Part shown: positions 14,401-59,119 of the stretch, piece after piece
How the letters are laid out: each line of letters starts with the position of its first letter
Position numbering within the stretch: position 1 is the first letter of the stretch
Source: Psammoneis japonica
Lineage: Eukaryota
Length of the DNA: 64,000 nt
NCBI GenBank assembly: GCA_008632985.1
Contig: QPGO01000050.1
Location: 186,001-250,000, forward strand
Reading direction: 5' to 3'
Made by a program: the position numbers and the translations under genes
The notes under the pieces: generated by a model
The model's database searches: none
The model's input: only the letters and a program-made list of their open reading frames with translations
Told to the model about the DNA's origin: nothing

Positions 14401-14565
14401 GAATCAGTGGAGTCCAGTCCATGCTGGCAGTTGCCACCACAGGCACTGACTTTGACATTGGCGTTCCAGCTGCACCTCTGACAGGAGCTTTTGCAACCAA
14501 ATTGTCAATCATTCACACAGCTGAGTTGATGGACTTTCAGCTTCCACCAACACACACAACCCTCA

Positions 14566-20884: not shown

Positions 20885-20992
20885 TCCGACAAACCCCGAC
20901 AAGCCCCGACAAACCCCGACAAGCCCCGACAAACCCCGACAACGTACGACAAACGCCGACAAGAGCCGACAAGAGCCGACAAACGCCGACAG
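20885..20992 (+). repeat. 10-bp tandem array (CCCCGACAAR-type) inside the MITE
   Basis: About 10 units of the form ccccgacaaa / agccgacaag. Confidence 0.9.
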
Positions 20993-21268
20993 ACGGACGT
21001 TTGCGACATACCGATAACGCAACGCTCCCCAACATTCAGAAGTGCCCAGTCGTACTGATAAAAGGTACAGTACAGCAATACATACCGGTACATTCCGTTG
21101 CACTATGTAGAAGTGTACGATGTTGTCCCGGTATTGACGAGAGTATGGAGACCGCCGAGAGCGGCATGATCGTCGCTTTGCATCATCGCGCAAAAGAGAC
21201 ATACCGGTAGTGTCAACGGAGACGTTAGCGGTTAGCGTGTGCGGGGGGCGTGGGTGTTTCGTTCGTGA

Positions 21269-21356
21269 GTCGTCGTGTCGTGACGTGTCGTGTCGTGTCT
21301 TGTCGTGTCGTGTCGTGTCGTGTCGTGTCTTGTCGTGTCGTGTCGTGTCTTGTCGT
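21269..21356 (+). repeat. (TGTCG)n 5-bp tandem array inside the MITE
   Basis: tgtcgtgtcgtgtcttgtcg... repeated about 17 times. Confidence 0.9.
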
Positions 21357-22669
21357 ATGCCGATTTGTCGGATGTCCGACAAAATTTGTCGGCTACGACA
21401 AATTTTGTCGTATACGACAAATTTTGTCGGATGAATTTTCGTCGATGACATCGTTCGCCAAATTCTGTTAATTACCCCACTTATTGAAACGACATCGCCA
21501 AAGTTCAGGTTGGTTATAAATGACATTAATCATTTTATAACTTAATTTTAAACAATGTTTCTGTCCCATTTATCGCCAACCCGGACATTTTGTCGCAATT
21601 CGCGTCTTTTCGCGACAAATCATCAATTCATTTAAGAAAATGTCGCCAAATGCGACAAAATGCCGTGTGTCCCTGGGGCACTGCAGGGGCTGTTGTTGGG
21701 CATCAGCACCAGCGACCCAATGAGGTGGGAACGAACACACCACAACAGAACAAGCAAGTGTCCCACTTTACAAGGCTGTCCTGCACTTGAGCAAACTCAT
21801 GGATGGGTGCTGGCAGGGAGTGGTGCCAAATCAGCTCCTCATTTGTGCACATGTGATGCATGTGCACCATGTCTCCAGATGCTCTCAGCTTCATTTTGCC
21901 AGCCACTCTCTGCCATTGAAGCCAGAGCAGTGCCCAACCACAACTTGAGTGAGGTTGAACAACCAAGTGAGCAACAAGTCATTCAGCTGCACATGTTGTT
22001 GCATCTGACACTAAGTTGCCACCTCACCACCTTTCAGGGCTCAACACACTGCAAGACAATTCCAGACACAACTTGAGCACAAAGCAACAAACTGCCACAT
22101 GCTTTTGCTCTTCTTCCAAACAGGTCTTGGCAACGGGGTTGCACATTGCTTTCAAGGTTCAAGCAAGGAGTCAGTGAAACATGGTGAACACAGACTGCAC
22201 AATGTGAGGGACAGTGGAGACAACACAACAAACCTGCACAGCTTGAAGTCATTTCCAGAAAATCCCATGATGAGCAGCCAGAGCAACAATGTGTGGGTCA
22301 TGCATGGCAGAAGTGCAAAAAAGGCAGTCATTTTGCTGTTTGGACAAACAGCCTGCAAACAATTTGCAGCAACATGAAATGAGAGAAGATGAAATTAATC
22401 CCCCCAGTGGCACAGCCAAATGAATTTGTTCTGGCACTTGCAGAGAAGCACACAATGAGCACCCGGGCTTTGGGACAAACAAAGGGTGCCAGTTTCTATG
22501 AGGACAGCCAGCAGCAAAGATGAGGCATGGCAAGAGAGATCTTGCAGTCACCTGTGCATTGTGCTGCAATGGCTGAGAGGTTGTTCAAAAATGTTGAGGG
22601 CAAAGCAGCTGCTGATGATAAAGCCTGTCACTCAGCTGGGAAGCAAGTCACCACATGCAATGTGTTTTT

Positions 22670-25600
22670 GTGCTCAACAAGAAGATCAATGAGAACAAGA
22701 AATGAAATTTTTTACACCTGTGATGCATTCTCCACACAGCGGTGCCATGGTTTTTCAGAAATCAACTGATGCAGTCACTGCCACTTGAGCTCCGAACAAT
22801 GGCTTCCCACTGCCTCATTTTTGGTCCAAATCTGGCATTGCCAAAGTCATTGTTCAGGTTGACAGCTGTTTTTTCGATGGTCACAGATTTGCAACATTTT
22901 GTTTTGTGGTGCAACATGTTGTGTTTTTGCAAGAGCTTCAACTCAGTTGCCTGTTGCACGTCATTTTTTGTGTTTTGGCTGCACCTGCTGTCTCTTTTTG
23001 TTGAACAAACACCACACAACTCAGCTGCTGACATGCTGTTTGGCTGGTGCATGACAGTGGTGCACCCATCCTTGTCACACATCTGACAACAACAAATGAA
23101 AAAACTCTCCTGAAAAAAACTTTCCATCAAACCAAGCCCATTTTGACAGACAGCACAGTTGTGAGCTTGAATCCTTTCCTTCTGCCCAGCATCAATTTGA
23201 TCCTGTCATGACTCCTCATGCTTTCTGTTGCCACAAATGCTCATCAAATGATTTGACCTCATCATCACATCACAATTTGACAAATTCCAACATGCTCATC
23301 AACCCAGATTACAGCATGGTTCAATCTGAGCTTCATTCAGCACTGCTTTCAAGCAGTTGTTTAATGACAAACATGCTGCAAACACTTTTTGAGGTGCCAA
23401 GTCATTGGGGCTGACATGGTTGCAGCCCAGAGCTTTGTGTTTTTGTTTTTGCCCATGCCTGCACACTGCACTCCATTTTTGCTGTTGCAGCAGATTTTTG
23501 CTGGTGAGTGCCAAATTGCATCTCCACTGTCTGTGCAGCTCTTCCTCATTGCTCTGTGAATGCACCAGTTTTGCATCTTGCAGAAGGTTGCAGAGGGTCA
23601 TTTTTGGAAGCTTCACTTGTTGAAGTGCTGGCATCAATTTGCTTGCATCAGAGAGAAAGGCAAAAACATTCCCAGTGTGCCCAAGAACTCTGGGACCCAG
23701 GCTGTGCAAATGGCAGTTGCAGTTGAGGCTTCTTTGATCAGAGAAAACTTGCTTCACATTGGAGCTTTGTGCAAAGGTTGGTGCAGATGATCAAGCCACA
23801 TTGCAACAACTGCATTGCCAACAAGATTTGCCATGAAGATTTGCTTGACAACTTGCAGCAGGAAAACTTGACAAGGCTGTGCAAGCTTCCAAAAATGATG
23901 ACTGTGGCACACAATCAATGGAGGTGAGCTCATCTTCACATTTCTGACTCATGTCCCAACCAATCCTCCCACAAGATTCATTCTTGCCTGGGCATGGGAT
24001 CAGAGTGAAACAGAAGACGGCTCACTCTTTCATCACAGTTCTCCATTGTTTCCAACTTCCAACTCATCCTTTTTGCTTCGCAAGTGTCATGTGGTCCTCT
24101 TGAGCATCCAAAGAAAGCATTTGAGCTGTTGCTTGAGCACATGAGAGCACCAAAGGTGTGAAAATCATCCCAGCCACTCTGTTCCTTTTTCCAGACCTTG
24201 TCTGCATCTTTGGGCAGCTGATGAGCCACTGTGGCAAGAAGCAATGTCATGCACAAGGTGCAAAAATGACTTGCAAAACAAAGCATCAGCAAGCGCTGCC
24301 AGCAAGAAACTCACAGAAAACAACAAAGGAGCAAGTGGGTGGTGATTGCAGAGCAGCACCTGAGAATGTTGTGCTCTGATGTTGAGAAAGCCCTCACATG
24401 CTTTTGACAGCAAAAGCACTCAACAAATTCTTCTCAAAGAGCTTTTTCTTACAACCCAAAACCCACATCCTCTGGCAATTTTCTTTGCTTTGTGAAAATG
24501 GAAACAATGGCTTCTGGTTGCTGCTGCTTGCCATTTTCTCACTCTTCTTGCTGCTGCTGCTGCTGCTTGCCATTTTCTTCTTCTTCTTGCTGCTGCTGCT
24601 GCTGCCATGTGAAGGTGTTGTTTTGTGCATGTGCATGACAAGTTTGTCGCCAAAGGTGCTGCTGCATGCAACAAGCTTTTGATGAGCAGTCAGCATGGAA
24701 AAGCTGTTTGACAGTTCTGTGAAGCCAAGTGACAACTGCAGCACCATGAGAAGGATGCACCACAAGAAGATCAATGAGAACAAGAATTGATTTTTTTGCA
24801 CTTGTGATGCACTTTCCACACAGGTGTTGTGGTTTTGCACAATGTCAGCTGATGTGGTCACCCCACCATTTAAAAATTCTGAACAATCACATTGTCATGT
24901 TTTGCCACCGGCTCATTTTCAGTGGCAAACCTGGCATTGCCAAAGTCATCATTCAGGTTGACAGCCAATTTTCCCAATGACCACAGATTTGCAGCACTTT
25001 GTTTTGGGGTGCAGCATCTCATTTTTGGAAGAGCTTCAGCTCAGTTGCTGTTGCATGTTTTTTTGCTGTTCTGGCCGCACCTGTCTCTTTTTGTTGCACC
25101 AGACCACACCATGCACAGCTCAGCTGTCAATGCACTGTTTGGTGCATGACAATGGTGCACCCCCCATCCTTGTTGCACATGTGACAACAAGGAAAAGACT
25201 CACCCTCTGAAAGAAGCCCCTCATTGAACCAAGCCCCTTTTGACAAACAGCACAGTTGTGAGCTTGAATCCTTTTTCTGTCCAGCAGTGCCAGTTTGACC
25301 CTGTCATTGCATGCATTTCCTGCTGCCACAAATGCTTGTCAGCCAATTTGACTTCATCATCACACCACAATTTGACATCACCCCAGATTGCAGCATGGGA
25401 CAATCTGCACTTCATTCAGCACTGCTCTCAAGCTGTCCATTGGCATTTGGGAGCCTCCAAAAAGATGGCTGTGTCATGCCATCAACAGAGCTCAACTTCA
25501 CATTTTTGACTCATGTCCCAGCCAGTCCTCCCACAAGATCCACTCTTGCCTCTGCTTGAGATCAGAATGAAAATGGAGAACAGCTTGGTCAACTCATCCT

Positions 25601-27540
25601 TCTGCTTTGTGAGTGTCATGTGGTCCTCTTGAGCATCCAAGAAAAGCATTTGAGCTGCTGCTTGAGCCTGTTAGAACATCAAAGGCATGCCAAGAACATC
25701 ACCCCAGCCTCTCCACTTTTTCCCCTGTGTGCTGTGTCTGCACTTTTGGGCAACTCATGAGCCACACTGTGGCAAGAAGCAATGGCATCCACAAGGTGCA
25801 AAAATGACTTGCAAAGCAGAACATCAGCAAGCACCGCCCAGCAAGAAAGTCACAACAAACAACAGAGGAGCTTGTCAGTGATTGCAAAGCAGCACCCAAG
25901 AGTGTTGCACTCTGATGTTGAGAAAGCCCTCACATGCTTGGACAAAAGCACTCAACAAATGATTCTCAATGAGCTCTTTTCATGACCCAAAACCCATGTC
26001 CTCTGGCAATTTTTTGTGAAATGGAAGTGAGGGTTTCCTCTGGTTGCTGCTGCTGCTTGCCATTTTTCTTCCAGCTGCTGCTGCTGCTGCTGCCACCATG
26101 CAGAGGAGCTGTCTTGTGCCCACACATGCCAAAATTGTTCCTGAAGGTGCTGCTCTGGCTGCACAACAAGCTTTTGACAACAAGCCAGTGCCAAGAAGCC
26201 ATTTGACAGCTCAACAAAGCCAAGTGGCTGACAACTGCAGCACAATGAGAAGGATCCACCACAAAATCAACAAGAACAAGAAATGAAATTTTTGCACCTG
26301 CAATGCACTCTCCACACAGGTGTGATGGTTTCTCAAAAATCAACTGATGCGGTCACCACACTGTTTGAATTCTGAACTTTTTGATCACAGGTCTGACATT
26401 GCCAAAGTCATCACTCAGTTTGGCAGCTGCTTTTTCCAATGGCCGCAGATTTGCAACATTTTGTTTTGTGGTGCAGCCTCTTGTTTTTAGAAAAGCTTCA
26501 ACCCAGTTGCCCGCTGAATGTTTTTTTTTAAGTTTTGGCTGCTTCTGTCTCTTTTTCCTTTAGCTGCATCAGACACCACACAACTCAGATGGCTGATCCA
26601 CTGTTTGCATGACAATCATGTGCTTTCTCCTTGTCACACATCTGACAACAAGGAAAAACTCTCCTTCCAAAAGAAACTTCTCGTTGAACCAAGCCCCTTT
26701 TGACAGACAGCGCAGTTTTGACCTTGAATCCTTTCCTTCTGTCTGGCGCCAATTTGACCCTGTCATCATGTGCACTTCATGTTGCCACAAATGCTTGTCA
26801 ACTAATTTGACCTCATCATCACATTGCCGCTTGACAAATTCTGACATCGCCAGATTGCAGCGCAGGTCAATCTGCACTTCTTTCAGCACTGCTCTCAAGC
26901 TGTCAATTGGCACTTCCCATGTGGTCCTTTTGAGCGTCCAAGGAAAGCATTTGAGCTGCTGCTTGAGCCTGCAAGAACATCAAAGGTGTGCCAAAAATGT
27001 CATTCCAGCCACTTCACTCCTTTTCCCATGCCTCGTCTGCATCTTTGGGCAGCTGATGAGCCTCTGTGTCAAGAAGCAATGGCACCCACAAGGTGCAAAA
27101 ATGACTTGCAAAGCAAAGCATCAGCAAGGGCCACCAGCACAAATCTAAAAAAAGGAGCATGTGGATGATTGCAGAGCAGTGCACAAGGGCGCTGTGCTCT
27201 GATGTTGAGAAAGCCCTCTCATGCTTGCGCAAGAGCACTCAACAAATTCTTTTCAGCAAGCTTTTTGCATGACCCAAAACCCATGTCCTCGGGCAATTTT
27301 CCTTGCTTTGTGAAATGGAGACAAATGCTTCCAGTTGCTGCTGCTTGCTGTTTTCTTTTTGCTCTTGCTGCTTCTGCCACACAGAGGTGTTGTCTTGTGG
27401 CCACACATGCCAAGGTTGTTTCCAAAGGTGTGCTGCCACATGCAACAAGCTTTTGACAAGGGCGCAGCACAAAGAAGCCATTTGACAGCTCAACAAAGCC
27501 AAGTGACAACTGCGGCATTGAGAGAATGATCCACTGCAAA
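22670..27540. repeat. Degenerate tandem array, ~3 units of ~1.5 kb
   Basis: Landmarks recur: atcaatgagaacaagaa-like at ~22685/24770/26266; tgtggtcctcttgagcatccaa-like at ~24090/25619/26919; tctgatgttgagaaagccctc at ~24375/25911/27198. The first unit carries a ~570-bp insertion. Confidence 0.88.
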
Positions 27541-27645
27541 GGCAGTGCCGCTGCACAAGGTCTCCCATCTTTCATGATTTTGGTCGAAGTTGTTGGTGCA
27601 CTGCACTGCACAACATGTGTGCCAGCAGTCTTTCCACCGGATGTT

Positions 27646-27646
<1 letters not shown>

Positions 27647-27678
<32 letters not shown>

Positions 27679-27807
27679 NNNNNNNNNNNNNNNNNNNNNN
27701 NNNNNNNNNNNNNNNNNNNNNNNNNNNNNNNNNNNNNNNNNNNNNNNNNNNNNNNNNNNNNNNNNNNNNNNNNNNNNNNNNNNNNNNNNNNNNNNNNNNN
27801 NNNNNNN

Positions 27808-27839
<32 letters not shown>

Positions 27840-27846
27840 CACACAC
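27647..27846. repeat. (CA)n microsatellite spanning an assembly gap (N at 27679-27807)
   Basis: Pure CA runs on both sides of 129 Ns. Confidence 0.95.
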
Positions 27847-28204
27847 TCTCACTGAAATGGCTGCACAACATTTTGTCAACATGCTCCAATGTGGCAGAAA
27901 CAGACAACTTGACAGAGGTGCGCTGCTCTTCCCACACTCCTTCAAGACAATTCATGGACCTTGGGGTCCTTGTGCTGTTGAGTGGGAAGCTCAGCTCTGC
28001 TCATGTTGGGAGAAAGGTGATGCCGGGTCACAAAGCCACAACACCAACAAGGAGGCATGGGGTCACAACACCACCCCAAGATCAACCTTGCACAGTGTGC
28101 TTGGCCACAATTGTCAAAGTGTTGCCTGGAGCCCACTGGATGCCACCAGTGCCCTCAGCTTCTTGCCATCGTTGGGTTTGTTGGTGCTGTCATGCTGCTG
28201 GTGT

Positions 28205-28720
28205 CCACCCCAAGTCTCGGAGCCGCCGGCTCAGCTGCCCCAGGTCCCGCAGCAGCCGGCTCAGCTGCCCCAAGGTCTGCAGCAGCTGGCTCAGCCACCC
28301 CAAGTCCCGCGGCAGCCGGCGCAGCCACCCCAAGTCCAACAGCAGCTTGCCCCAGGTCGGCAGCCTCAGCCGCAGCCCCAGCAGGAGCCCCGGCAGCAGC
28401 AGCAGCAGCATTGTGGGCCAGTGCTGGCATTTCACAGCACCGCAAGCAACCATCGCAGTGCAAGGAGGCGCCACATTGATGTTGCGCCCGGCCAGCAGCA
28501 GCAGCAGCAGCAGGGGCAAGTTCCGGCACCACTGCAGCAGGTTCCTGGCCAACAGCAGCAGCAGGGGCAGGTTCCGTCACCTTCGCAGCAGGTTTCTTGC
28601 CAACAGCAGCAACAGGCACAGGCTCTGGCTCAACAGCAGCAACAGGGGCAGTTCCACCTGCTGCTGCCACAGCCACAGGAGCAGCTTCAGGTGCTGCTGC
28701 AAGCAGAGCTTCAGCGGGCT
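28205..28720 (+). repeat. 30-bp tandem repeat (28205-28347) followed by CAG-rich low-complexity sequence
   Basis: gccggctcagctgccccaggtcccgcagca-like unit about 5 times, then (CAG)n runs. Confidence 0.8.
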
Positions 28721-28984
28721 TCAGATGCTGTGGTGGGGTTTGCATCACAGTGCAACATCTCTGGCTGCAGATTGCTTTTGTCACTGTCTGTGCCATTTCC
28801 CTGTTTTCTGCAGTGGCAATGTTTGTTGCTGTGCAAATGTGCAGCACCATTGAAGACTGTTTTGACATTGTGACAAAGAACAATTGAAAGCTGTTTTGAC
28901 AATTGCGACAAATGCACAAGTGGCAGGGAAATGAAAAATCTGTTGCTTTAGAATGTTGTCCATTGTTCTAAAACACAGTGTCAC

Positions 28985-29940
28985 AGCATCTGTGAACATC
29001 AAACAATGGATTGCCATTTTCAAGCTCCAGCTCTGTGATCACAGCCACTGCTGTGAACACATTTTGGTGTCTTTTGACTCAATGACAAAAGACACGGTTC
29101 AAGCAACTCCACTGCTTGAACCTGTTGTTTGCAGCTTCATGGCAAGCTCAAACCCATCCATGAAGTTGGCCACCATCCTGTTCAGGAACACTGCAGAGAG
29201 GGTGGCCCCTGCACCCCAGATTGGCTGCAACCCTCTCACCATCATCAAGGCAGTGTGCAAGAGCACTTTTGAAAATGTTGATGTCTGGACACTGGCCACA
29301 TGGAAACTTTCCATAAATCCAGACAATGTCTCCTGTCACAATGTTCATGGCAACCTCTCATCTGACTCCAGGCTTCTTGAATTTGTGCAAAAACTGGCCT
29401 TTCCAAAAAGGCTTCCAACCACAAATGCAGAAGATGGTGCCATCAACCAACACCAAGCATGTGTTGCCCATGCCCCCTTGAAAATGATTTTCCCACACAA
29501 TCTGGAGCAAAGTAACTCAGTGATGAGAGCCAACAAAGTGAAAGAGCAACAAAATCCCGCATTTCTAATGTTGCTTGATGTGCACTCACCCCACAGCAAA
29601 TTGCAGATTGCAGATCACAGCAACAAATGTCCAACTCCACTTGCGAAATGTTTTTTTGTCAACTGCGTTGGTTGCACTGGCAAGTGAGCAAAAATCTGAC
29701 TCAGAGCACAGCAGAGCTTCAGCGACATCATCAGCACCCACGGAGGAGAGGTGAGCCGCTGATGCACCACGTTCCATCTTTGCAACTGGGTCCATCATTG
29801 TCCACAACAAGGCACAACAGATCTCAGGTCATGTCCCAAACATTGCCTGAAACCATGTCACATCTGATGCGTGTGCAAACACGGTTGAGCACCGCATCAG
29901 TGCCTTTCCCTCAGAAAGGAAAGTTGTTGCTGCTGTGTGC
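28985..29940 (-). mobile_element. Decayed DDE transposase (DDE_Tnp_4-like; Harbinger/ISL2EU-related)
   Basis: Translated remnants FQAMFG, DKKTFRKWSW, CLVLVDGT, HKFKKPGVR*EVAMNIVTGDIVWIYGKFPCG, GERVAANLGCRG (expected ADxGYRG) and NPLFDV; broken by stops and frameshifts. Family assigned by motif recognition only. Confidence 0.72.
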
Positions 29941-31832
29941 ATGACAAAGAGGCAGTGCGTTGTCAGCCAATGTCAACAACGCCACTGCTTCTGCCTCCTT
30001 GCTCTCTGTGACATTTGGAGAGAGCAGATTGCGGCATCATGGTTGTTGGGATCGTGGCACAGAAATGGTGGGTGCGGGTGAGCTGAGATGCTTCAGAAAG
30101 ATGCGGTGACATGCGACATTGTGTTGCTCAAAGGTGAGCTTCAAAGTGAGCTTCGAAGAAACTTCGAAGCATCTCTTTAATGCCGCCAGCTCTCTCTAGA
30201 GCAGCTGGCACCCAAAATCTAGTCTAGCCACCAGCTGGAGCCAGCCACCACTGGCAGCTGGAGCAGCCACCACTCTGCTCCTAGAGCAGAGAGCTGGTGC
30301 TGCAGCAGACAGCATGAACAGACACCGTCAATGTCAAACGTACAGTGCCGTGTGCCCAAGAACGTGCGTGCATGTCCAAAACACGTAGAAGTGCCGTGTG
30401 TGCGAACCCACAGGTGCGCATCGCATGGTTGGGGACACGGAAGCAATGCCGGATGCGATCAGTGCGGCAGCATGGCACTGCAGAAGAGAGGCGCAGGCGA
30501 AGAACAGAAGCAGTCCAATCATCATCCCTCACCACCATCACATCAAAACCCAATTGAAGAGACAGTTGCTGATGCGATTGCATTCACACTGGATTTGGCA
30601 CGACCATTGCAGCCAGTGCAATGTCTCGTCGCCCAGCTGCAGAGCCTCCCGATGATGCTGACGCGAACAATGGACGATCTGTGTGTCAACGAGCGTCGAC
30701 ACCTCCTCCAGGTCTAATTGCCACGGAAGATGCGCCCGGTGATCTTTTTCCCATTGGAAAACTGGCAGCAAGTCCACTTGAAGCTCGAGGTGAAGTCAGC
30801 AACGGCTCTCGGTTGATCTCAGGCTTAGAGACATTTGTTGCCGACTTGCACCGCACCCCCCGGTGGTTCATTGAACTCAGCGATGTCGATGACACAGAGG
30901 CAAGCCCTCGTTGTGGTGTCATGCTGGTGGTGACTCCAATCACAACAAACCCAGAGGACTGCACCCTCACCAACATGACAACGGACCAAGAGGGCCGTGT
31001 CCTTGTGGTGAACGTGACCGTCTGTCCACGCCGCATCAGTGGCAATGCTCCCCAATGGTTTGGAGATGAACTGGAGAGAACTTCTTCAGCAATCCCACAA
31101 GGCGACAGATGTCGGGACAGGACCGGCACCTTTCAACCTTCCAGAGTCAGCAAAGACTGCTGGCAGACTGCCTGGTCCAATCAAATTGGCAGGCACATCT
31201 CTGCTGATGCAAACATTTGTGCAACAATGGAAGATTTGACCAAGAGGCGTGGTTGGGTTCGCTCAGATGGCACTCGCATTTGATTGACAAATTTGAACAA
31301 CATGCGTCCCCACGATCGAAATGGCAGCAACCAATGGTTCATGTTGATGCAGCTCTGGACCAACACCAGAAACCTTGTGACAAATGTCTGACAGAAACCT
31401 GCAGCAGGACCAAACCATGGAACAGAGTTTGTTGGCCAGTCATTTCCGAGTCTTGGTTTCTGGCTAAATCCAGGTCTCTTCTTGCATGTGTCCCAAAGTT
31501 TGTGTCCCTCCACTCTGGCCAGCTAGTCACTCTAGAGCAGCCAGCTAGAGAGAGCAGCTAGCCCCTTCTCGTTGCGATGTGATTTCATGTAAAAAAGAGG
31601 AAAAAGCCCAAGTTTCTCGGAAAAGTGGTTGACAATGCAGCCGCACGAATAAAAGGCAGTTGTCGCGCGCAATTTCGCAGGCTGTGCGCGCGAAGTTCGA
31701 ATTGATTCTGGTGCCGTGTCCAGCATGATGGCGGGTTTTTGTTGTCTTCCACTGGGCGCAGTGTCAACAGTCTTTGTGGATGGTCAGTTGGTGTGCTGTC
31801 GGGTGGGTGGAGGTCGATTGAATCGGGGTCCT

Positions 31833-34400
31833 TCAATGTTTGTAAAGGGACAGACCTGCGCCATCTTCCCACTGGGGTCGCCTGGAGAGCTGATCTGAGA
31901 GGCAGGAACACAGGATCCCCTGAGGCAACGGTGGGTCACCCAAACTGTGGTGATGCTCATCCTTGCATTGACACAGCTGCATGCTTCAGAACATGGCTTT
32001 TGCCACTTGTCTGACAGTTTCGATGCCATCTTCTTGCGGAGCATCACCTTGGCTTCCTTGCTGAACAGCCCGTCGCATGACACAACGAAGGGCATGACAT
32101 GACGGTGTTGTTCAAGACAGGGCTTGAGGTGCTTACGCTGTTTTCATGTTCGTGGCTTGCCAGGACTTCTTCTGGTGTTTTGGACAGGTGTGACTTCACG
32201 TCTGTGTCAGGGATTCGAACATCCATCACCATGTCTGTCCTTCTGTCCCAAAATCTCATGCCGAGAAGGTCTCCACGATCGCCATCGTTGGACTTGTTGG
32301 AGTTGGTGTTTCCTGGGGAACCATTGGGGGTGCTTGAGCTTCCATTGTTGCAACCAGTGGGGTTGATTGGGGGTCCGTCGCGTGTGTGGGAAGGTTTGCA
32401 AGCCTTGCCCATCAGGTCACCCACCAGGTTGTCACGCACTTCATCATGTCGTGAGATGACTGGGCCGCCCTTCTTGCACTGAAGAGCATGATTCATGGTG
32501 AATTTGCATCCACATTCATCACAGTGCTCTGGGAGGTCTGGCGGAGCACCGCCATGCCACAAGAAGAGTGCATCACGGAGCTCTTGGCATGAGAGTTCTG
32601 TGCCGTTCAGTGTCGAAGGGTGTGCTGACAGCCACGCTCCAGTCTTGGTGCTGCGCTTGACAGCTCTGGCCTGAAGGTTGGGCAGGTTCCTGAGGATCCT
32701 TTTGAGGGTCTCTCCATGTGCTTTGACTTTTCCATCAGCTGCTTCCTGTTTCACTTCACGCATGGTGTCCTTGTGCACTGCGGAGGAGAGCTGGGAGCAG
32801 ATGCGGAGTGAGATGATCACGTGGGAGCACGTGAGAGCACTTGCTTCACAGTTGTGAGCTGTGGACTCAGTTGGACAAGGGATGGACAGTCACGAAAATT
32901 TGATTGGGAGGGTGGACAGGGCCAATCTCAGGTTGTCGTTGGCTGGGGTCTTGCCCATCAGCGCCGGCAGAAAATTGCACTGTGTCGCGTGTTCTGCGTC
33001 GGCGAACAATTCTCCGCAGTCCTTTGCCACATGTTGGGCACATTGCCACTGAGGTTGCAGAGACTTTTGCAGACTAGCACAGGCGGTCTGAGGGTGGCAA
33101 ATTACAATCTTGGCGAGTCCCTGGATGACCGAGGTCCATGACTTGGCTTTTTCGCCCAGCCAACGGTCGCGTGCGTCCGTCTCTCCGACGAAGCCTCTGA
33201 GGCAGCAGCTGCCAGACTTGACAGCAAAGCCCAGATCTCCAAAGTGTGCTCCAGCATTTTCCAGGTTGTGTTCTGGGACTGCCAGGATGTTCTTGGAGTT
33301 GTCGGCAAGGCAGCATCCGTGTGTTTGGGGCCTTTGGCTTGGAGAGTGAGGAAAAAATCCCGCAGGACGTTGAATTTCCCAGCTGCTGCGGAATTGTCGG
33401 CATGCCAAGGGGTGAATGCATCTTTAAAATGTTCATTCATTTCATAGACTGGTGGAAGAAGTCCCAGTCCATGTGCCACCACACCAAGAAGCAGATCACC
33501 CTGTGTGACACCTTCTTTGCTGAGCAAAATGAAGGCGGTTCCGAAGCTTCCGCGGATGATCAGGACACTCCAATGCTTGTGGCTGTTGAAGGTGAACCTT
33601 GCACCAGATGGCCAAAGGTGCCTCACATTGCACAGCATCAAGATCCAGTTCTCTTTGTTGAACCCATTGGAGGCATCGACAAAAAGAAATCGGCAGTCAT
33701 CTTCAAATTTGTGTTGCTCCCAGAGCATGCTCATCGTGTGAATGGCGCCCTTGATGCCTGCTTCCAGTCCAGCACACAGCTGGTCTGTCCCACAAGCTTC
33801 CTTGGCTTCTGCTCCAGCAACTGGATGAATGGCTTTGGCAGTGGCTTGTTGCCACACCTCCCCTGTGCCGACCAGATGTGCGCCCGGGTTTTTGTTTTGC
33901 ACGACAAGTCGTTTTGCCATGATTTGCGGCACACGGCCCACAGGGGGTGACTCGTTTGCTGGCCAGTTTGCAAAGTTGCACAATGCTTCTTTAAGCAACC
34001 CACTGGCTTTTCTGCAATGGAGAAGCCATTCTGATGCTGTGTCAGCATCAGATCTGCCAAGTCCTGTGCCCCCGGACAGTCTGCGCTTGACGGTCTTGAT
34101 GGTTCCATTGGTGACAAGTGCACCCTGAAGCTCAGGCAACTCACTGAACTTGTGAAAATGGTCTTCATCCGGGATCCTCTGGTTTGGATGTTTCTTCTGA
34201 AGAATCTCAAACACTGAGTCATTGGTTTTTTTGTTGATGTCATCTGGTGAGAGGATTCCACCTTTCTCGCATTCGGAGATGCACCCACAACCACTCCTCG
34301 CAGGTTCCCTTGGAGCACCGTTCTATTGAATGTCTTGGTGCACTGCTCAGACATCTCCTCCCTTTGAATGGTCTTCAGGTCAGTTTCTGTTGCACATGGA
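31833..34400 (-). mobile_element. Decayed non-LTR retrotransposon with RT, CCHC knuckle and restriction-like endonuclease (CRE-like clade), 5'-truncated
   Basis: RT motifs FVDASNGFN, SKEGVTQGD and WHADN (from WYADD); C-x2-C...HALQC and RHDEVRD; RLE motifs RGDLL...DVRIPDTD and PFVVSCDG; C-terminus PQWEDGAGLSLYKH*. Confidence 0.85.
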
Positions 34401-36690
34401 CATTTGTCAAAACCTCAAAAATGTTCCAACGGAGTTCAAAACTGACTTTTGCTGTGGCAATGCAGATTTTTGGACCTTCAAAGATTTGTCTTCTTTTTTT
34501 AACAAGAATTTTACTTTCACAATCAGATGAAGACAATTGATTCTGCACACAAGCACAAATGTTTTATTCTGCCACTTTGCTTGCTGTTGTCAGGTTGGTT
34601 GGCACTGCCATGTGTCCTTTTGCTCTGGAGTTTGGAAATTCAGCGGCCCAACTGCTCCTGTTGGGGACAAGGCAACACAAGCCACACCACAACATCAACC
34701 TTGCAATTCCCAGCCACAGTTCTCAAAGTGTTGCCTGGGGTTGCCAGAGACCAATGGCACCTTCACCAGCTTGCTGTTGCTGGTTTGTTGGGGCCATCAT
34801 GGTGTCCTTTTGAATTTGGAAAGTCACATCTGCTCCTGTCAGGAACAAGGTGACATGGGGTCACAAAACCAAATGATCAACCTTGCAATGCTCAAACATG
34901 GTTTGCACCATCATGGCAGGGTCCTTTCATTCTGGAGCCAGGAGTTTGAAGTGTGCTTCTGGCTGGGACAACATGATGGGGTGTTGCAACCGTGCAACAC
35001 TGGCATTGTGCTGAGCACAATTCACAAGTGTTGGTGCCTGGGGTCCACCAGAGACTGCACCAGAGTGACCTCAGCCTGCAGGTGCTTGTTGGGTTGGTTT
35101 GTGCAGGCGCGGGGCTGCTCACAGTCTGAAGTTGGAAAGCTCAACAAGTCTGCCCCAGCCTGCAGACAAGGAGATGACATGGGACCACAACAGAGCAAGG
35201 AGGAACATTGACAGCAGGAGGCACTGCAGCTGCAGTGCCTCCACATCTCTGGGGGCTGCTGGGCTGGCTCTGTGCAGGCACCACACATGCAGCACCACCT
35301 CTGTGCTGACCCAACCAACCTCTTGCTCAACGAGCTCCCTGTCCACAATGAACATCTGTGCAACCAGCTCCACAACCTCTTTTGACCTCCTGCCTGCAGA
35401 TTCAACTGCGACGAGAGTGCAGCAGCAACAAAGGTTGTTGCGCACATGTGAATCAGCTCTGCAAAGATCAGCTGGCACATCAGCAGCCCCACAGACACAA
35501 ACAAACAAACTGCATGTGCCAGCACAAACAATGTGCAAATTCTTCAAACACAGATGCACCAAATGTGATTGAAACAATGTTCAACATCCAGCTGGTGCAC
35601 AAATGAGAGCTCACCACCAGCAACAAAACACACACTGTCAGCAAAGACCCAGTCATGAAATGACAAATTTTCAAGTTGATTCAAATGACCCAAAGCATTT
35701 TGAAACTAGTGTGATGAAAGGCTTCAAGAAGATGACCACTTGCAAAATGATGATGCAAGCAATGATTGACAGGCTGGCTGGGTTCTTGGCTGGGTGTCAT
35801 GGGAGGGTGCTGGGGTGCTGATGTCACAAGAGAGAGCTTCTCCTCCCATGCTGGACAGAGCTTTGCCAGGCAACAAATCCTTGGCTGACCCCACCTTTGT
35901 CAATGCTGACACACCCGCCAATGAGGCCAGCTGTTTGCACTTCTGTCTCCAGCTGCTTTTCCTCCAGTGTCATCTCCAACACAAAGCCCAGCCATCCTGA
36001 CACCACCTCCTCCTGTGCTGAAGAATCCTTCCCCATTTCTTCATCAAGAAATGCCACATCCCAGTCCCCCTGACACCAAGATGGCAGCTGGTTTGTCAAC
36101 CCCACCTTGGTGGAATGATGTCCTGACTTGAACCTGGCCATGTGATCTCCACCAGGGTTGTTGAGGGTGGTGCGCCATCCAACTTCTTCCTGTTGCTGGA
36201 GCCAAGGATGACATTGTGATGAAATCAGAAGTGGGCAACACTCTTCATGGAACACTTCTTCTGTTGCAATGTGCCAAGGGCACATTGACAGTTGACAATG
36301 CTTGGAAGTTTTTTGTCCTCTTGAGGCCACCTTCATTGCCTCCATCTGAGTTGCTGGGTTGCACGGATGCCTCTGGGAAACCACTGTTGCAATGGAGAGA
36401 ATCCATCAGATCATCACTGTGACCCTGAAAAAGGGAAAGGAGTGGGGGTGTCACACACAAATCAACTGTGTGCCAGTGCCTCCCCACAACTGAAATCTCT
36501 GCAACATGGGACAAGGAAATGCATGCCCTGCATGATGCTGCTTGGCCGCAAAGTTGCCAATGGATGCTTGGCTCTTCTGCTGTTGGCTCATGGACATGCG
36601 TGCACAAGCACAATGCAAAATGACAGCAGTGGCAAGCAAAAGGAAATCATGACCACATCATTGAACTCAATCATCAAAAGTGGCAAGACG

Positions 36691-37277
36691 GTGACGGACA
36701 CGAGCAAATGATCTTGTTGGAACTGGTCTGCATGCCACATCATCATCACTGTCATGTGTTGGATGAGGGTCTCAGCAGTGCACACATGTCAAGCATTGGC
36801 AAACAAGGAGACACTGGATGTGTTCGATTTACATTTCTTTCGTTTCCTCATCCGCCGCCTTGGTATCTTCGACAATGAGTTTTCCCGATTCTGTGTTCCC
36901 TTTTCCTTCTAGCTGTTGGTTGTGCTCCTCTTGCACTACAAGGGCGGCATTTCTCACCAGTTCGTAACGGTTGGCTACACCCAGAGCAGCCGCCGAGGCT
37001 TGAGAATCACCAGGCACAACGTCAGTAGTCGATGCATGCCTCGATTGCAAGAAGAACCCTGGATCCAAACCAGCCGCGGCGGCACGAGCTTGGTGTGCAA
37101 TCAAAACATCTTTTGACGACAGTGCTCCATTTTCTTGTCCATTGGAAGATGCAACTCGCCGCAAAGCCGTCAGCAGTTGCTGTGAAAGGTGGACCGTTCG
37201 GAAGCTTCAAAACAAACCCGTTCCATGCGATTGAACTTACTCAGCACTTGAGCCATTGCTCGCCCGTCGGCTGTTGC
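36691..37277 (-). pseudogene. TAF11-like pseudogene, copy 1 (internal ~350-bp deletion, TpA-mutated)
   Basis: Aligns to 37328-37800 and then to 38156-38249. Confidence 0.7.
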
Positions 37278-37327
37278 TTCTTGTGGAACGATAATTAAGT
37301 TTCTTCTGAGTTGGTTCGAGCCGCCCC

Positions 37328-38252
37328 GTGACGGACACGAGCGAATGATCTTGTTAGAACTAGTCTACGTACCATATCATCACCATCATGTGTTGGATGT
37401 GGGTCTTAGCAGTACACAAATATCAAGCATTGGCAAACAAGGAGATAATAGATATGTTCGATTTATATTTCTTTCGTTTCCTCATCCGCCGCCTTGGTAT
37501 CTTCGACAATGAGTTTTCCCGATTCTGTGTTCCCTTTTCCTTCTAGCTGTTGGTTGTACTCCTGTTGCACTACAAGGGCGGCATTTCTCACCAGTTTGTA
37601 ACGGTTGACTACACCCAGAGCCGCCGCCGAGGCTTGAGAATTACCAGCCACAACGTTAGTAGTCGATGCATTGCCTCGATTGCAAGAAGAACCCTGGATC
37701 CAAACCAGCCGCGGCAAGAGCTTGGTGTGGAATCAAAATATCTTTTGACGGTAGTGCTCCATTTTCTTGTCCATTGGAAGATGCAACTCGACGCGGCGCC
37801 GTCACCAGTCACTGTGCATATGCTTTCGCCAGCGTGGACACAACATCAGTGATCTCTTCAGATTGACCAGGCGCAACCATATCTTCAAGGGAGCGCTTTG
37901 GTCGACCACCGTTTCGTCGTCAATTCTCACTATTAGATAATGAACTAGTGTCACTACTGTTGTGACCATTGCTGGCAGTCCCATCGCGGATATACGGACA
38001 TCGCTGTGGCAAAGCGTTGTTGGCATTCCGGGCTTCACCGCCAATTCCCAAGGTCGAGGAGCCCAGGAGCTGTCGAGTCTTTTCTCCACCAGCACAATCT
38101 CTTTCGTGTGATACAGCAAGACAGTGCGCAACAAAAGATGATATAGCATCACCGCGAAAGGTGGACGGTTTGAAAGCTTCAAAACGAACCCGTTCCATGC
38201 GATTAAACGTACTCAGCACCTGAGCCATTGCTTGCCCATCGGCTGTTGCCAT
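37328..38252 (-). pseudogene. TAF11-like (histone-fold TFIID subunit) pseudogene, copy 2
   Basis: VLSTFNRMERVRFEAFK.STF and EEITDVVSTLAKAYAQ*LVT resemble the TAF11 histone fold; in-frame TGA stops at ~37920 and ~37810, plus a later frameshift relative to copy 1. Confidence 0.6.
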
Positions 38253-39049
38253 GCTGAATATCGATACAAGGTGTAGAGTGGAGATGAATCATCAGTACCA
38301 CCAAAGATTAAAGTTTTAGGCAAGGCATGATATTCCCTCTCAATACTTACCATACTCTTGAAGACGAGGAAGTTTTCTCTTCGTTGCTGTTCTTGTTTGT
38401 CTTTGCCGATTTCGACTTTTTCTGCTTCTTTTTCGTTTTTGTGGGCTTGGTAGGTTAAGCTCCCTTTTCCTCCGGTTCTATGGATTGAAGCAACAGATTT
38501 TTTTAGGATGTAAGAGAAAGTGAGGCGACGTGTAAGCACAATCAACCACGTTGGAAGTTGGAAAATACCTGCTTCCAACTGTCGCCGCCTCTGACCTTGG
38601 CCGTTTGATTGAGCGATGATCCATCTTGAGGCTTCAAACAAAATACTCGTCTAATGTATTCCTTTCAACTCACACTTTACAATTGTTGTAGAGTGCCGTA
38701 TCTCTAGCCAGAAACAGCACCAACAAGCAAGCAAACAAGGGAATACACTAAAGTCTCTTGAAGCAACAGCAAGAGCGGCGCAACGACCTTGTCTCCGCCC
38801 GCCCTTCGCTGCTCGGTCCTCGAGCTACTCTCCATCGTTTTGTTTTGATTTTTTTTTGACACCTGTGGACAAACGGGACACTGCGTAGCCAGGGTGTATT
38901 TTAGTACCTAGTGATTCGTGGACAAGCGTGCCAAGGCGTGCCAAGGCGTGCCAACGTGTACCAAGTGCTTCACGAACGATGGGGAGTGATAAATCCCGCG
39001 AAAATCCGAGCGAAACAGGTGCTGAACCGCATGAAAACCCCAAGCCCTG

Positions 39050-42000
39050 TGTCACGAGAATGACAGAAGTGCTGTAGGAATGCGGTAACCCCACCGGAAT
39101 CTGAGGGTCGTTTCCACCATTTGAAGTTTTCTTGTCGAGTGCTCCTGTGGATTCATCCAAGAGCAGAACTGCTGGTTTCAACGACAGTGCAATTGCAAGT
39201 GTGAGGCATGTTGTGCTTCCTCCTCTCCCAGAGAGGTTGATCCAAGGCGAGTGGACAGAAGCTCCGCTGGAGGCAATGCTGGTCGGGAGAAAGAGTGCTG
39301 TCTTTCTCATCAGCTTTGTAACCTTGCACTTCATTGAAATGCTCTCTTGGAGTTCTGTCGAGCGTTGGTTGCCATTGTTTGCAGCCTCATCCGTGCTGTT
39401 CTTGGGCTGATTCGCTGCGATGCCGTCAAGAGTCAAGAAACTCAAAATCATGGTGCATGATTGGTTCAATGTCACACATGCCAACAAGATCAAGCAGGAG
39501 GAGGACAAGGGGTCAACAAAAAGATTGGCATTGTTGGAGATGATGAGAATGGAAACGCTGAGCTCAAAAATGACTCCTTCCTCAAGGTGAAAGAGGCTGA
39601 CGATGAAGGCACGCCCTTGATGCGTTCGAGCTCGGTTGCAACTCAAAGGGCTGGGAACAAGAGCTTGAGTCTCTTGGAAAGGATGTGGAGAGCGTCCAGC
39701 AAACTGTCACGCATGTGTGTCATTCTGGATGAAACAACTCAAGCTGCCGCAGCTGGGATGCTGCCGGTTTCTTCATGGGCGTTGCGGGTGTGTTTGTCCG
39801 GCATGCACTCTTTTGGGGAGAAGCCCAGCTTCAGACCCTCACAGACAAGGGCAGAACACCGCTTCCTGTGCTTGGGAAGAAAGGGAACCAACCACTGATC
39901 TGATTGCCTTTGGCCATTGTTTGATTGATTCTCAAGATGCGGCTGCAATTGAAGCAGGTGTCAGCATTGGCTGTGCAGCTTTCATTTCAGCTGCAAAAAT
40001 GATCGTTGTCGGCCACAGCTTGGACACTGGCACAGTTGGAGGGCACGTTTGGGGGCCACTCTTTGTCAGTGTGTGGCTGCTCACCTCTTTGTGGGTGCAG
40101 ACAGAATGTTGTTGCATTGGACCGGCATTGAGCAGTGCCAGCCGCCATTCAAAAGAGGGGCTCAGAATGGATGTTGTCTCATGTTTCTGGCTTTGGAGAA
40201 TTGAAGGAGTTTCATCCTTCTTTGTTTCATGGAGCATGCCAACAAGCTGAATCTGTGAAACACCCACCATCTCTTCTGAAAGCGGGTTGGCACAGTTGAC
40301 AAGAACTCAGTTGCGACATTGGAAATGGCTCTGGTTTGGCATTGAGCAACGACGACATTGAGCGGTCCTCCATTGGAACTGGAAATCGGCGTGGACACGA
40401 GTTTGCATGATGACCAAGATTCTTGACCCAAACACCATGTTTGGACACAAAAAAACTTGCACCAGAAAATACAAAGGAGAACCAGCAACACAGATGCGTG
40501 CCATTGCTGTGGCTTGGGATGTTGCCATGACCAGGACATTCCATTCAATGACACCAGATTCCTTGGAAATGCTCAAACTGGTTGCAGCTGGACCTTTGGA
40601 CTTTAGACAAATGTTGTGGCCAGTTTGAGAAAGTGACAAATGAGCTCAAGGTCCAGTGCAAGTGTGACAACAATGCAGTGCAAACAAGCAACTGGAGCAC
40701 TGGACGAAAAAGCAATTGTGCGAAAGATGAGTCACCCCTTTGTCATGGGTTCACTCAATTCGCACAAGGACAAGCAGTGCCTCCAGATGCTGGTCAATCT
40801 CATGCACGTGAATTTGACGGCATTCTTGAGGATTGGGTTGTTGTTCATGCCTTGGCAGCAATTGAGGGGCTGAGCTGCATGCATTGTCAAGTCATTGTTG
40901 ACTTGGGAAGGGAAAATGTGATGCTGGACAGTGGACAGTGATGCTCCAATGTTGATCTTGGTCAATCTGTGTGTTCACCTTGCCATGGCATCATGCATGT
41001 CTTGGTGATGCTGGGTTTCATTAAAGCTCATGGAGGATCGGATTCTGCACCAATGGATTGCAACCGACACGACGGCCAAGTCGCTCATGACAGCGTGTGC
41101 TGAGGCCTGTTGTCAACAGACATTCTCAGGAAGCGCCGTCAGAGGAAAAGTGGTGGAGGAATTGAGAGGGACATGTTGGGCTGTTGGAGTTGAGAGGGAG
41201 AGTCAGTGTTTGGCAGTTGGGTCAAGGAGAGCATTCCACACTTGCCTGTCACCTTGTCCAACTTTTGCCAAAATCTGTTCTTTCACAGCTGCCTGCATCC
41301 CATCCACTCTTGAGCTCAACAGGGGCACTTTTGCACATGAGCAGGCTCAACTCTTGTTTGCCTTGTCTTGTGCATCTGTCCAGTTTGATGCAAAGGTGTG
41401 TGCAATTCATCACAATGCACTTCATTCTCACAACACTTCATTGGTGACCAAATCTGACTCTTGTCTTTGTGCTTCCCGCACAAGCAGGGGAAACGTCTCT
41501 GTTACGACATGCATGGCCAGGTTGTTTGAGGGCCTTGAGTGATGGTCCTTGCTTGGATGCGCTGGACCGACTCTCGCGGTGATTCAGATGCATCAAAATG
41601 TCATCTTGGACGCCGTTGCCTCCATGCCAGAAGGATTCATCCAACTTTTGTGGAGACTCGACTTGTTCCCTCTTTCAGCTGCACCCAACCTTGAGTGTCT
41701 TTCACCCCGATGCCAAAGAGGAGAATTTCATGCATTGCAGCCCCAAGCCAAGGACAGCTGTTGCCAAAAGACTTGGCAGCAGCAGGGCCTGTGGTGTTGG
41801 GCTTTTTGAAGTGCCACAGACAAGCCGCATTTGCTCACCTTGGAGAAGAGCACCATGCTCGTTGTCTAGATTGCACCTGCAAGAATGGTCACTTGCATCC
41901 TGTCGAAGCCTCAGAAAAGTTTCAAATCAAGTTGCTCGAAGCACGGGGCGCAGTTGGCAACACGGTGATTCGCCAAGCCTGCCTTGCATCATCATGCTGA

Positions 42001-42700
42001 ACATCACCAGGCTGCGGACGTGGTCCTTCAAAAGGCTCGCACTGTCGCCAACAATTCTCAGTTTGCGCCCGGCATGAAGCTGGGCTTCATTTGCACACAC
42101 AGCAGTTGGATCATGGATGCGGGGCATGAAGTCCTCTTAACTCGGCAGCTCGATCATCATCAAAAGTAGAGCGGAGTTGCAATGGGGGAAAAGAAGCAGC
42201 TTGGGACGACAAGAAATCAAGCTGCGATGCGGTGAATGTCGTCAAAGCTTCCCAAGCTGCCGGCACTGTTAGAGCGGCAATCGGGGCTGTGTCTTCAAGT
42301 TTCAATCCATCCCACAAAACCCGGAAAAGGGCAACATTGACGAGACGTTGCATGTCCTCTACCCAGTTTGACTCATCTCACGATTGTGCACTTCATCGAC
42401 ATTGATTCCAAAACCACAGACAATTCTGTTGGGGAGCTCATTGATGATTGGAAGGAGGTGTCGGTCCCGGGGAATGCCGTTGCTGTGAGTCTGCTCGCGG
42501 GTTCCTTAATTTGAAAAAGGACAAGATTGACTTTGCAGGCAGAAAACCACCGGCATCTACCGGCATTGAGAAGCTTCCATTTGGTTAGAGCTCACAGCAT
42601 TTCTTCGTTGTCGATGCAGGAAACGGAAACATTGATTTGTACAACATGAACCGTTGATGCTTCATAAAATGCAAAGATGGTCCATTGTCCATTGTTGAGC
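39050..42700. other. TpA-depleted block 3 with CpG largely retained
   Basis: Roughly 15-20 TA in 3.6 kb while CG remains frequent. Confidence 0.8.
39120..39250 (-). pseudogene. ABC ATPase gene fragment
   Basis: W.NLSG (degenerate signature), LAIALSLKPAVLLLDESTGALD (Walker B and D-loop); no Walker A found. Confidence 0.6.
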
Positions 42701-51299: not shown

Positions 51300-51719
51300 T
51301 ATCAATCAGGAAAGGGCTTTCTCTCTGGACCGCCCCTCTCCTACTTAACAACTGAAATGATTTCTTTTCAATGCTCAGTGCTGAGGACGTAATGTTTGCC
51401 CCAACACGCTGGCTTTGCGATGCAATGAAAGGCGGCGTACAAGGTGTTGCTAGTAGTCATCGTCTCTCTCTCTAGAGTAGAGAGAGCAGCAACAGCTTGT
51501 CCACCGCAACAGCCACAGCAGTGGTGTGAATGAGTCGTCAGAATTAGTCAGAATCATTCGCGCATTCGGCATTCGCGCGCGCGGCTTGGCACTTTGCCGG
51601 TCGTGTAAAGCAAAAACAAGAGGGAATGCCAAAGTCTGTGGGCAAGACCTTGTTGCTAAAAAACGTGGTTCTTATGATGCATGATCCATTGCTCAACATG
51701 TCATGTGCACTTTATGGTG

Positions 51720-58867: not shown

Positions 58868-59119
58868 AGTCGACACGAAGACGTTTGTACTTTCGCCGAA
58901 AGTTGTGTGTGTGGCGGCTGTGAGAAAGAAGAAAGATCAATGATCAACTTGTGCAAGAAAAATGACGGCGCAGATTCCCAGTGTTTCCAGTTTCCAGTGT
59001 GATCGTCCGTCGTCTCCGCGGGCAACACGTCACCTTTTGAAGGGCAATATATGATGTCATGATGACGACGGATATAAGCTCGTCGAGCGAAGCGCACCCG
59101 CCCATGGTCTTACGGCACT

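Follow-up and report, generated by a model that had tools for sequence, protein, structure and literature searches.

In ascomycete fungi, repeat-induced point mutation (RIP) converts CpA to TpA, so that TA accumulates, and mutates both duplicates of a pair; it depends on a cytosine-methyltransferase-like protein and takes place at a premeiotic stage. To our knowledge, mutation of A:T to G:C directed at TpA is, besides RIP, the only hypermutation known to strike repeats or foreign DNA in place at one particular dinucleotide, and the sole documented case that we found in the literature is a 2026 preprint on a chlorarachniophyte. As described in the parts of that preprint that were accessible, A:T to G:C hypermutation at TpA only was measured in mutation-accumulation lines of Bigelowiella natans, in integrated DNA of nucleocytoplasmic large DNA viruses (NCLDV) and virophages, and an ADAT2-like adenine deaminase was proposed; clusters depleted in TpA and enriched in CpA + TpG were also enriched for reverse transcriptase (RT) and DDE domains (Mettrop et al., bioRxiv 10.64898/2026.01.13.699255). 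Here, we analyse a 64-kb window of the diatom Psammoneis japonica (64,000 nucleotides; GenBank assembly GCA_008632985.1, contig QPGO01000050.1, positions 186,001 to 250,000), in which a tandem pair of TAF11-like pseudogene copies abuts a long block free of TA. We consider it quite probable that repeat- and retroelement-derived nuclear domains of the diatom underwent a DNA-level transition hypermutation of TpA to TpG/CpA that leaks over a few hundred bases into the adjoining DNA.

The window belongs to a pennate diatom without an identical entry in the protein collection, as judged from its methylmalonyl-CoA mutase ORF (Table 1). Its base composition is ordinary throughout (GC 0.43–0.57), and its dinucleotides occur in two states. 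Five blocks with sharp borders, totalling 37.6 kb (Table 1), have observed/expected (o/e) ratios of 0.04 for TA, 0.22 for CG and 1.8 for TG and CA, compared with 0.61, 1.03 and 1.1, respectively, in the rest of the window. The block that the first-pass annotation had described next to copy 1 is real and shows these same values (TA 0.04, CG 0.22, TG/CA 1.8). A joint criterion of low TA and high TG + CA selects 34 of the 63 1-kb windows of this stretch and none of 977 1-kb windows in 80 methylmalonyl-CoA mutase loci of at most 61% identity, which serve as a rough control only, the loci being presumed mostly bacterial from identity alone. The likeness to B. natans lies in the change itself, from TpA to TpG/CpA on either strand, and in its confinement to particular regions. 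According to the accessible text, B. natans, a rhizarian, shows a mild depletion (Rho TpA of 0.45 in an NCLDV region) and its per-generation rate was measured, whereas the diatom blocks have a TA o/e of 0.04 over tens of kilobases. The terms ‘CpG’, ‘trinucleotide’, ‘flanking’ and ‘diatom’ do not occur in the available text of that preprint (bioRxiv 10.64898/2026.01.13.699255), which thus describes neither a loss of CpG nor a 3′ context nor leakage into flanks. The diatom case is the B. natans signature in another lineage of the stramenopile–alveolate–rhizarian (SAR) group, at saturation, to which it adds a 3′ pyrimidine preference, a co-occurring CpG decay and leakage into the flank. No report of TpA loss in diatoms was found in the literature, in a search that most subscription journals lay outside.

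The two TAF11-like copies lie in tandem over about 590 bp and are now 91% alike. Copy 1 (36691–37277) aligns with two parts of copy 2, 37328–37816 and 38156–38249. The first-pass annotation had reported that 12 of the 13 TA sites found in the first ~150 bp of copy 2 are TG (eight) or CA (four) in copy 1; realignment reproduced these counts, as well as the five changed sites out of 11 between 150 and 500 bp from the start of copy 1. Its observation that CG is much less changed near the edge also stands, with a corrected count of two of five sites where two of six had been given. When the 94-bp 5′ segment is included, 18 of 26 TA sites are changed in copy 1, to TG (ten) or CA (eight), against only four of 31 CG sites (p = 2e-5), and the differences between CG and TG/CA are about symmetric, with four each way. 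It is indeed only the block-adjoining copy that is affected, as had been claimed: there are 18 TA-type changes in copy 1 and none in copy 2, and over the 488 aligned bases the count is 17 to 0, no site reading TA in copy 1 and TG or CA in copy 2. Copy 1 thereby resembles a block in its TA content, with a single TA in its first 150 bp (bottom 2.4% of non-block windows, and block-typical) and seven in 488 bp (bottom 0.2% of non-block DNA), yet 24 CG remain beside the seven TA of its 494 bp. Copy 2 has 13 TA per 150 bp, in the top 6% of non-block DNA, and 24 per 488 bp, in the top 29%. Copy 1 also has a small number of A:T to G:C transitions in contexts other than TpA (at 36963, 37199, 37261 and 36974 of the window); the TG to CG change at 37261 is derived in copy 1 according to two of three orthologues, and that at 36974 is GA to GG. 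These hint at a weaker off-context activity, or else at ordinary mutation.

Table 1. Coordinates of the features discussed, with their strand and the observations that define them.
Feature	Position	Strand	Observation
Copy 1, TAF11-like pseudogene fragment, tandem partial duplicate	36691..37277	-	Partly TA-converted, CG normal
Copy 2, longer TAF11-like (TAFII28, PF04719) pseudogene	37328..38252	-	ATG at 38252; TA count normal
Segment of copy 2 without counterpart in copy 1 (339-bp internal deletion)	37817..38155	-	Alignment
In-frame TGA of copy 2	37809..37811	-	Arg in 13/13 orthologues (AYAQ-R-LV); CAA in copy 1 at 37177-37179
His codon CAC of copy 1	36922..36924	-	Tyr TAC in copy 2 at 37556-37558; orthologues Tyr 12/13, Trp 1
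Saturated leak zone	36691..36840	no strand	First 150 bp of copy 1, 3′ of the pseudogene frame
Five blocks	~6100-20450, ~21650-36700, ~39100-42350, ~51700-54400, ~59100-62100		Dinucleotide composition
Block adjoining copy 1	21650..36690	no strand	TA-free, CG-poor, TG/CA-rich
Block beyond the 2.4-kb island	39100..42350	no strand	TA gone, CG only half depleted
Reverse-transcriptase-like ORF (open reading frame) remnant, in block	33105..34322	-	36 homologues, some with PF00078
MITE-like (miniature inverted-repeat transposable element-like) insertion, unmutated, ~1.07 kb	20604..21676	no strand	TA o/e 0.55-0.8, CG o/e 1.5-1.8
Decayed ABC-ATPase fragment (signature, Walker B, H-loop region)	38828-39706	-	Straddles block edge at ~39100
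Methylmalonyl-CoA mutase ORF, intron-less	784-3171	-	<=79% identical to Bacillariaceae, Cylindrotheca, Nitzschia and Mayamaea proteins

An asymmetry of 18 to 0 fits both directions by itself, and copy 2 is somewhat TA-rich in its first 150 bp. One may therefore wonder whether copy 2 gained TA from CA or TG by a RIP-like C to T change, with copy 1 representing the ancestral state. We regard this as very improbable, because four lines of evidence (repeat pairs inside the blocks, composition, a tyrosine codon of the pseudogene and the RT remnant) agree on a direction in which TA, and also CG, is the source and TG/CA the sink; the polarity first proposed, with TA lost from copy 1 and not gained by copy 2, is thus upheld. 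In five tandem-repeat pairs within blocks, double differences of CA against TG number 6, 29, 9, 11 and 8, with every other kind of double difference seen four times or fewer, and the single non-block pair has none. The exchange of TG for CA needs two transitions, by way of TA or CG, and so an ancestral TA or CG was resolved independently in each copy. As for composition, the TA counts of copy 2 are ordinary for non-block DNA, those of copy 1 fall outside its range, and an ancestral stretch of 150 bp with one TA would itself look like part of a block. The only TA-type difference that orthologues can polarize is the codon at 36922..36924: the TAC of copy 2 matches the tyrosine of 12 of 13 orthologues, which contradicts a parent carrying TG or CA at the sole testable site of the 18. 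Moreover, copy 2 is derived at several sites other than TA, so that neither copy is pristine.

The RT remnant in the adjoining block provides the fourth line. None of its six conserved tyrosine columns retains tyrosine, three of them being now CAY histidine codons, whereas 123 of the 215 remaining conserved columns are intact (Fisher p = 0.007). Ten conserved arginines have been replaced, five of them by cysteine, histidine, glutamine (twice) or tryptophan, which are the products of CGN changed to TGN or CAN. As judged from its homologues, the DNA hit at 33105..34322 is retroelement-derived. One of these homologues, protein P0137 from a metagenome contig, has 0.0% tyrosine over 306 amino acids, with histidine and cysteine raised, compared with about 2.3% tyrosine in the remaining ones (36 in all), suggesting that TA-erased copies of this retroelement family exist in at least one other sample.

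Within blocks TG occurs as often as CA, and the two are intermingled (runs-test z of -3.0 to +1.3), with no strand-coordinated clusters of TG against CA beyond the level seen in non-block DNA, and the TA-type changes of copy 1 alternate between strands; it follows that the substrate is resident duplex DNA and not an RNA or single-strand intermediate. The footprints of APOBEC and ADAR enzymes in animal retroelements are likewise clustered transitions in mobile DNA attributed to deaminases, but they show strand coordination, are formed on RNA or single-stranded intermediates and favour other contexts, whereas the diatom changes are interspersed, on both strands, in resident DNA. Editing of transcripts by an ADAR- or TAD-like enzyme, followed by reverse transcription and insertion, could draw on the retroelement remains in the block and on the 5′ U preference of RNA adenosine deaminases given in the accessible text of the preprint (bioRxiv 10.64898/2026.01.13.699255). 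It is nevertheless contradicted by the two-strand pattern and is the least probable of the explanations considered here: copy 1 is an in-place tandem duplicate of DNA with changes on alternating strands, the blocks contain as much TG as CA in mixed order, and the 3′ preference is for a pyrimidine.

This 3′ preference emerges from the TA sites left in the blocks relative to non-block DNA: 2/270 for RTAY, 16/225 for RTAR, 18/206 for YTAY and 66/149 for YTAR. At RTAR sites the gain was chiefly of CA (631, compared with 216 TG), and at YTAY sites it was chiefly of TG (510, compared with 248 CA). In each flank class the TA + CG lost is close to the TG + CA gained (806/1011, 781/847, 822/757 and 651/646). 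These counts fit a target that would be the A in 5′-TAY-3′ or, equivalently, the T in 5′-RTA-3′. As to the chemistry, an enzyme most likely deaminates adenine in DNA to inosine, by analogy with the proposal for B. natans. Alternatively, an enzyme of TET/JBP type could make 5-hydroxymethyluracil or 5-formyluracil at RTA in silenced DNA, which mispairs with G and leads to T to C changes. Formyluracil is mutagenic, and some protists modify thymine. A change of T to C at 5′-RTA-3′ and one of A to G at 5′-TAY-3′ are a single event, and sequence data therefore cannot separate the two chemistries; the only published proposal for this signature being adenine deamination, we consider thymine oxidation unlikely, although it deserves to be kept in mind.

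TA loss also runs ahead of CG loss. In the blocks at 30–34 kb and 39–42 kb, TA is almost gone while CG is at an o/e of about 0.5, and at the edges near 36700 and 62100 CG resumes first and TA 140–200 bp later. Decay of CpG by deamination of 5-methylcytosine, as in methylated transposons, explains the part of the signature in which CG becomes TG/CA (block CG o/e of 0.22), and a likeness to it can be seen in the pair itself: one conserved CGA codon is lost in both copies, and the TGA of copy 2 and the CAA of copy 1 imply an ancestral CG resolved both ways. It cannot, however, remove TA, and as a sole explanation it was rejected, TA being depleted both more (0.04 compared with 0.22) and earlier. 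CG survives in blocks chiefly where its flanks are rich in GC (GCGC 54/68, GCGG 45/60) and is lost where they are A/T (TCGT 23/126, TCGA 26/107); this flank dependence belongs to the CpG decay and is distinct from the TA process.

RIP leaks into unique flanks, according to the accessible part of one report (PMC7296669), and the diatom process shares with it a defence-like hypermutation of repeats that consists of transitions at a single dinucleotide and spills over into neighbouring unique sequence. Leakage of this kind is observed here both at the pair, in the 12 of 13 TA sites within 150 bp, and more widely. We placed eight block edges of the window by change-point on TG + CA alone and took the expectation from interior non-block windows: the first 300 bp outside the edges hold 66 TA against 100 +/- 15.6 expected (empirical P = 0.005), a placement that is not fully independent of TA loss. 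Without the edge at copy 1 the count is 59 against 87.6 (P = 0.014), and between 500 and 800 bp from the edges it is back at background, with 100 TA. The deficit that the first-pass annotation had suggested plotting at further block boundaries is thus seen in the first 300 bp, and an edge effect of short range, though modest, is probably a general feature of the window. The two systems differ in that the direction is opposite, TA being lost and TG/CA gained in the diatom blocks, and in that only one of the duplicates carries TA-type changes (18 in copy 1, 0 in copy 2); these two differences rule out fungal RIP as the identity of the process.

The decaying gradient described initially has fared less well. 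Changed TA sites at the pair are more frequent near the block than far from it (12/13 compared with 6/13, Fisher p = 0.03) and the deficit at the eight edges points the same way, but successive bins are not monotonic, and support for a gradient is weak. The region from 150 to 300 bp contains only five differences of any kind, and 91 bases (36833–36923) are identical in the two copies; gene conversion or constraint may blur the picture here. It is possible, although we would not favour it, that the gradient is not real: copy 1 in its entirety would then lie in the target domain, half converted, and the contrast between 12/13 and 6/13 would be noise plus gene conversion or constraint in the 150–300 bp stretch. 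The drop to 1/6 followed by 4/5, the identical stretch and the low overall count of seven TA in 494 bp are all compatible with this. The seven other edges, which are also TA-poor in their first ~300 bp, and the resumption of TA 140–200 bp after CG at 36700 and 62100 speak against it, and we retain leakage from the block with a short reach.

What directs the mutation to the blocks can be approached from their contents. Summed contig depth is 350–2050 over 33000–35100, compared with ~59 in single-copy parts, indicating that the block contains multi-copy DNA. Together with the RT remnant, this depth would fit a foreign or mobile origin of the blocks, but block ORFs gave no credible Pfam family, and the ABC-ATPase fragment and single-copy DNA have been converted as well: host-type genes can be swallowed by a block, as the fragment straddling the edge at ~39100 illustrates, and 35808–36509, adjoining copy 1, is TA-free at single-copy depth (58.8). 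In addition, an unmutated MITE-like element is inserted deep in the block. Its terminal inverted repeats (GGGACACACGGCATTTTGTCGC...) lie at 20600–20728 and 21548–21676; further inward it has TTTGTCG/CGACAAA as subterminal repeats, as well as tandem arrays with units of 5 and 10 bp. The insertion is perhaps recent, and would then be a clock for the last action of the hypermutation.

The first-pass annotation had concluded from the one-sided pair that mutagenesis follows a spreading chromatin domain rather than homology pairing. This does not follow: RIP leaks too, a homology-recognized block that leaks would give the same one-sided asymmetry, and the MITE-like insertion is unmutated. Our own lean, held with somewhat less than even confidence, is that the targeting signal would be a silent chromatin or methylation domain. 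A positional model of this kind is favoured by the TA-free single-copy segment at 35808–36509 and by the many-contig island at 37212–38849, which is not depleted; against it in its simple form stands the MITE-like element, unmutated deep in the block, which may simply be recent. We give a smaller, though still appreciable, chance to targeting by repeat homology as in RIP, in which the flank would be hit by leakage with no chromatin spreading and the short tandem pair would go unrecognized. The multi-copy depth over 33000–35100 and the RT-derived ORF there are in keeping with it, and the unmutated MITE fits a trigger other than location. On the other hand, homology should have reached the island, whose summed depth is 270–730, and both of the tandem copies, ~590 bp long and 91% alike, and should have spared 35808–36509, unless the latter is a copy diverged by more than 15%. 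The rest of the probability goes to targeting by neither of these.

The sequence itself shows the direction, the specificity for TpA, the action on both strands, the confinement to regions, the edge effect and the lead of TA loss over CG loss, while the chemistry and the targeting signal are inferred. The following course of events is quite probable. A regional process, reaching a few hundred bases past the block, would turn TpA into TpG or CpA (A:T to G:C) on either strand, site by site, with a preference for A followed by a pyrimidine (5′-TAY-3′). Ordinary decay of CpG to TpG/CpA would proceed more slowly in the same domains, and both processes would drive TA and CG into TG/CA. After a tandem duplication of the TAF11-like pseudogene unit, the TA sites of the block-side copy would have been converted, almost completely within 150 bp of the block and about half of them beyond, leaving untouched the copy that lies 640 bp farther off.

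Several observations weigh against this account, in addition to the placement of the edges mentioned above. Just one of the 18 TA-type differences is polarized by an outgroup, and the 12 in the saturated zone all fall outside the reading frame, on its 3′ side. The decay at the pair is not monotonic, the bins being 12/13, 1/6, 4/5 and 1/2. The TAY preference seen in the blocks is absent from the pair, in which five of six YTAR, five of ten mixed and eight of ten RTAY sites are changed, the mixed-class changes going in the predicted direction in three of five cases, and one of the three tyrosine-to-histidine changes of the RT remnant has a preceding C, contrary to the context rule. The MITE-like element, although surrounded by a 30-kb block free of TA, has a normal TA content and a very high CG content, so that location in the domain alone is insufficient for prompt mutation. 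Finally, although contigs of a public sequencing run (run X1) match 34712–36590 with two other letters and 36570–36861 with none, at a word depth of ~59–75, and the block letters are therefore present in reads, this run is perhaps the assembly's own source, and its library type is not on record. These last two facts leave a slight opening for an artefact, in which modified bases of heterochromatin were miscalled in sequencing or polishing. We judge such an artefact highly unlikely, given the clean contigs at a word depth of 59–75 with zero to two differences over block and edge, an outcome that is always TG or CA and almost never CG or a mixture, conserved tyrosine and arginine codons replaced as predicted, and the sharp borders of an unmodified-looking insertion. 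A second run (X2), of unrecorded kind, hardly covers 33000–36977 and does cover the island, and no conclusion was drawn from it; a third (X3) placed no contigs on the window, and no RNA run is listed among those containing the sequence.

The saturation of more than half of a 64-kb diatom window suggests a widespread algal genome defence. More speculatively, and on balance doubtfully, diatoms might possess a heterochromatin-coupled defence that deaminates adenine in DNA, erasing TpA (5′-TAY-3′) from silenced mobile DNA and creeping outward together with the silent domain, and that is homologous to the B. natans system. If so, it would be an old defence of the genome shared across SAR, chemically the mirror image of RIP in fungi, and a natural adenine editor of double-strand DNA that reshapes genes beside repeats. 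The signature points to a natural enzyme changing A:T to G:C in DNA, of interest for base editing, and the tandem pair displays the change without experiment: TA turned to TG/CA on both strands of resident DNA, by position beside a block and not in both duplicates. Genes adjoining blocks would be at risk of collateral mutation. Moreover, mutated elements escape domain searches because their tyrosine codons and TAA/TAG stops are lost. Pfam searches of 107 block ORFs of at least 110 amino acids gave no credible family, only five chance-level matches under the cut-offs (E of 0.0016–0.0093), and 56 more ORFs of at least 75 amino acids from two blocks, at E <= 0.5, gave chance-level matches plus a weak ABC_tran (E of 0.08). 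No viral genes were seen in the window. The ORF at the block edge (38828–39706) has two weak ABC-ATPase matches (E of 1.4e-4 and 5.1e-4) in a phmmer search against 1.84 billion representatives; they were tried as a polarizing outgroup and dropped as too distant.

The pseudogene nature of the pair needs comment, since the initial reading had spoken of a functional TAF11 locus. The premise of a functional copy fails: copy 2 has a TGA at an invariant arginine and a one-base frame shift. A second in-frame TGA lies at 37920–37922, the frame-breaking one-base insertion is near 37671, and neither copy has an intact frame, so both are pseudogenes. The family assignment comes from the read-through translation of copy 2 (37659–38252, minus strand), which has 61 protein matches, 55 of them carrying PF04719, with a best E of 4e-42 at 52% identity; a Pfam scan of the 110-amino-acid ORF alone gave nothing at E <= 0.5. 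In copy 1 the frame of the ORF at 36829–37164 is continuous with that of the orthologues. A conserved 25-mer of both copies had no matches in the metagenomes searched for outgroup DNA. Contigs of run X1 that are 85–95% similar pile up on 37212–38849 (summed depth 270–730, compared with ~59 for single copy), and some of them are without the extra base at 37672 that breaks the frame of copy 2. From this pile-up, several further TAF11-like copies should exist elsewhere, perhaps including a functional one.

The blocks also contain old tandem duplications, at 22671–27540 and 7299–8411, whose units measure ~1.5 kb (73–77% identity) and 0.55 kb (90%). At 27679–27807 there is a gap of 129 N, with (AC)n runs on either side.

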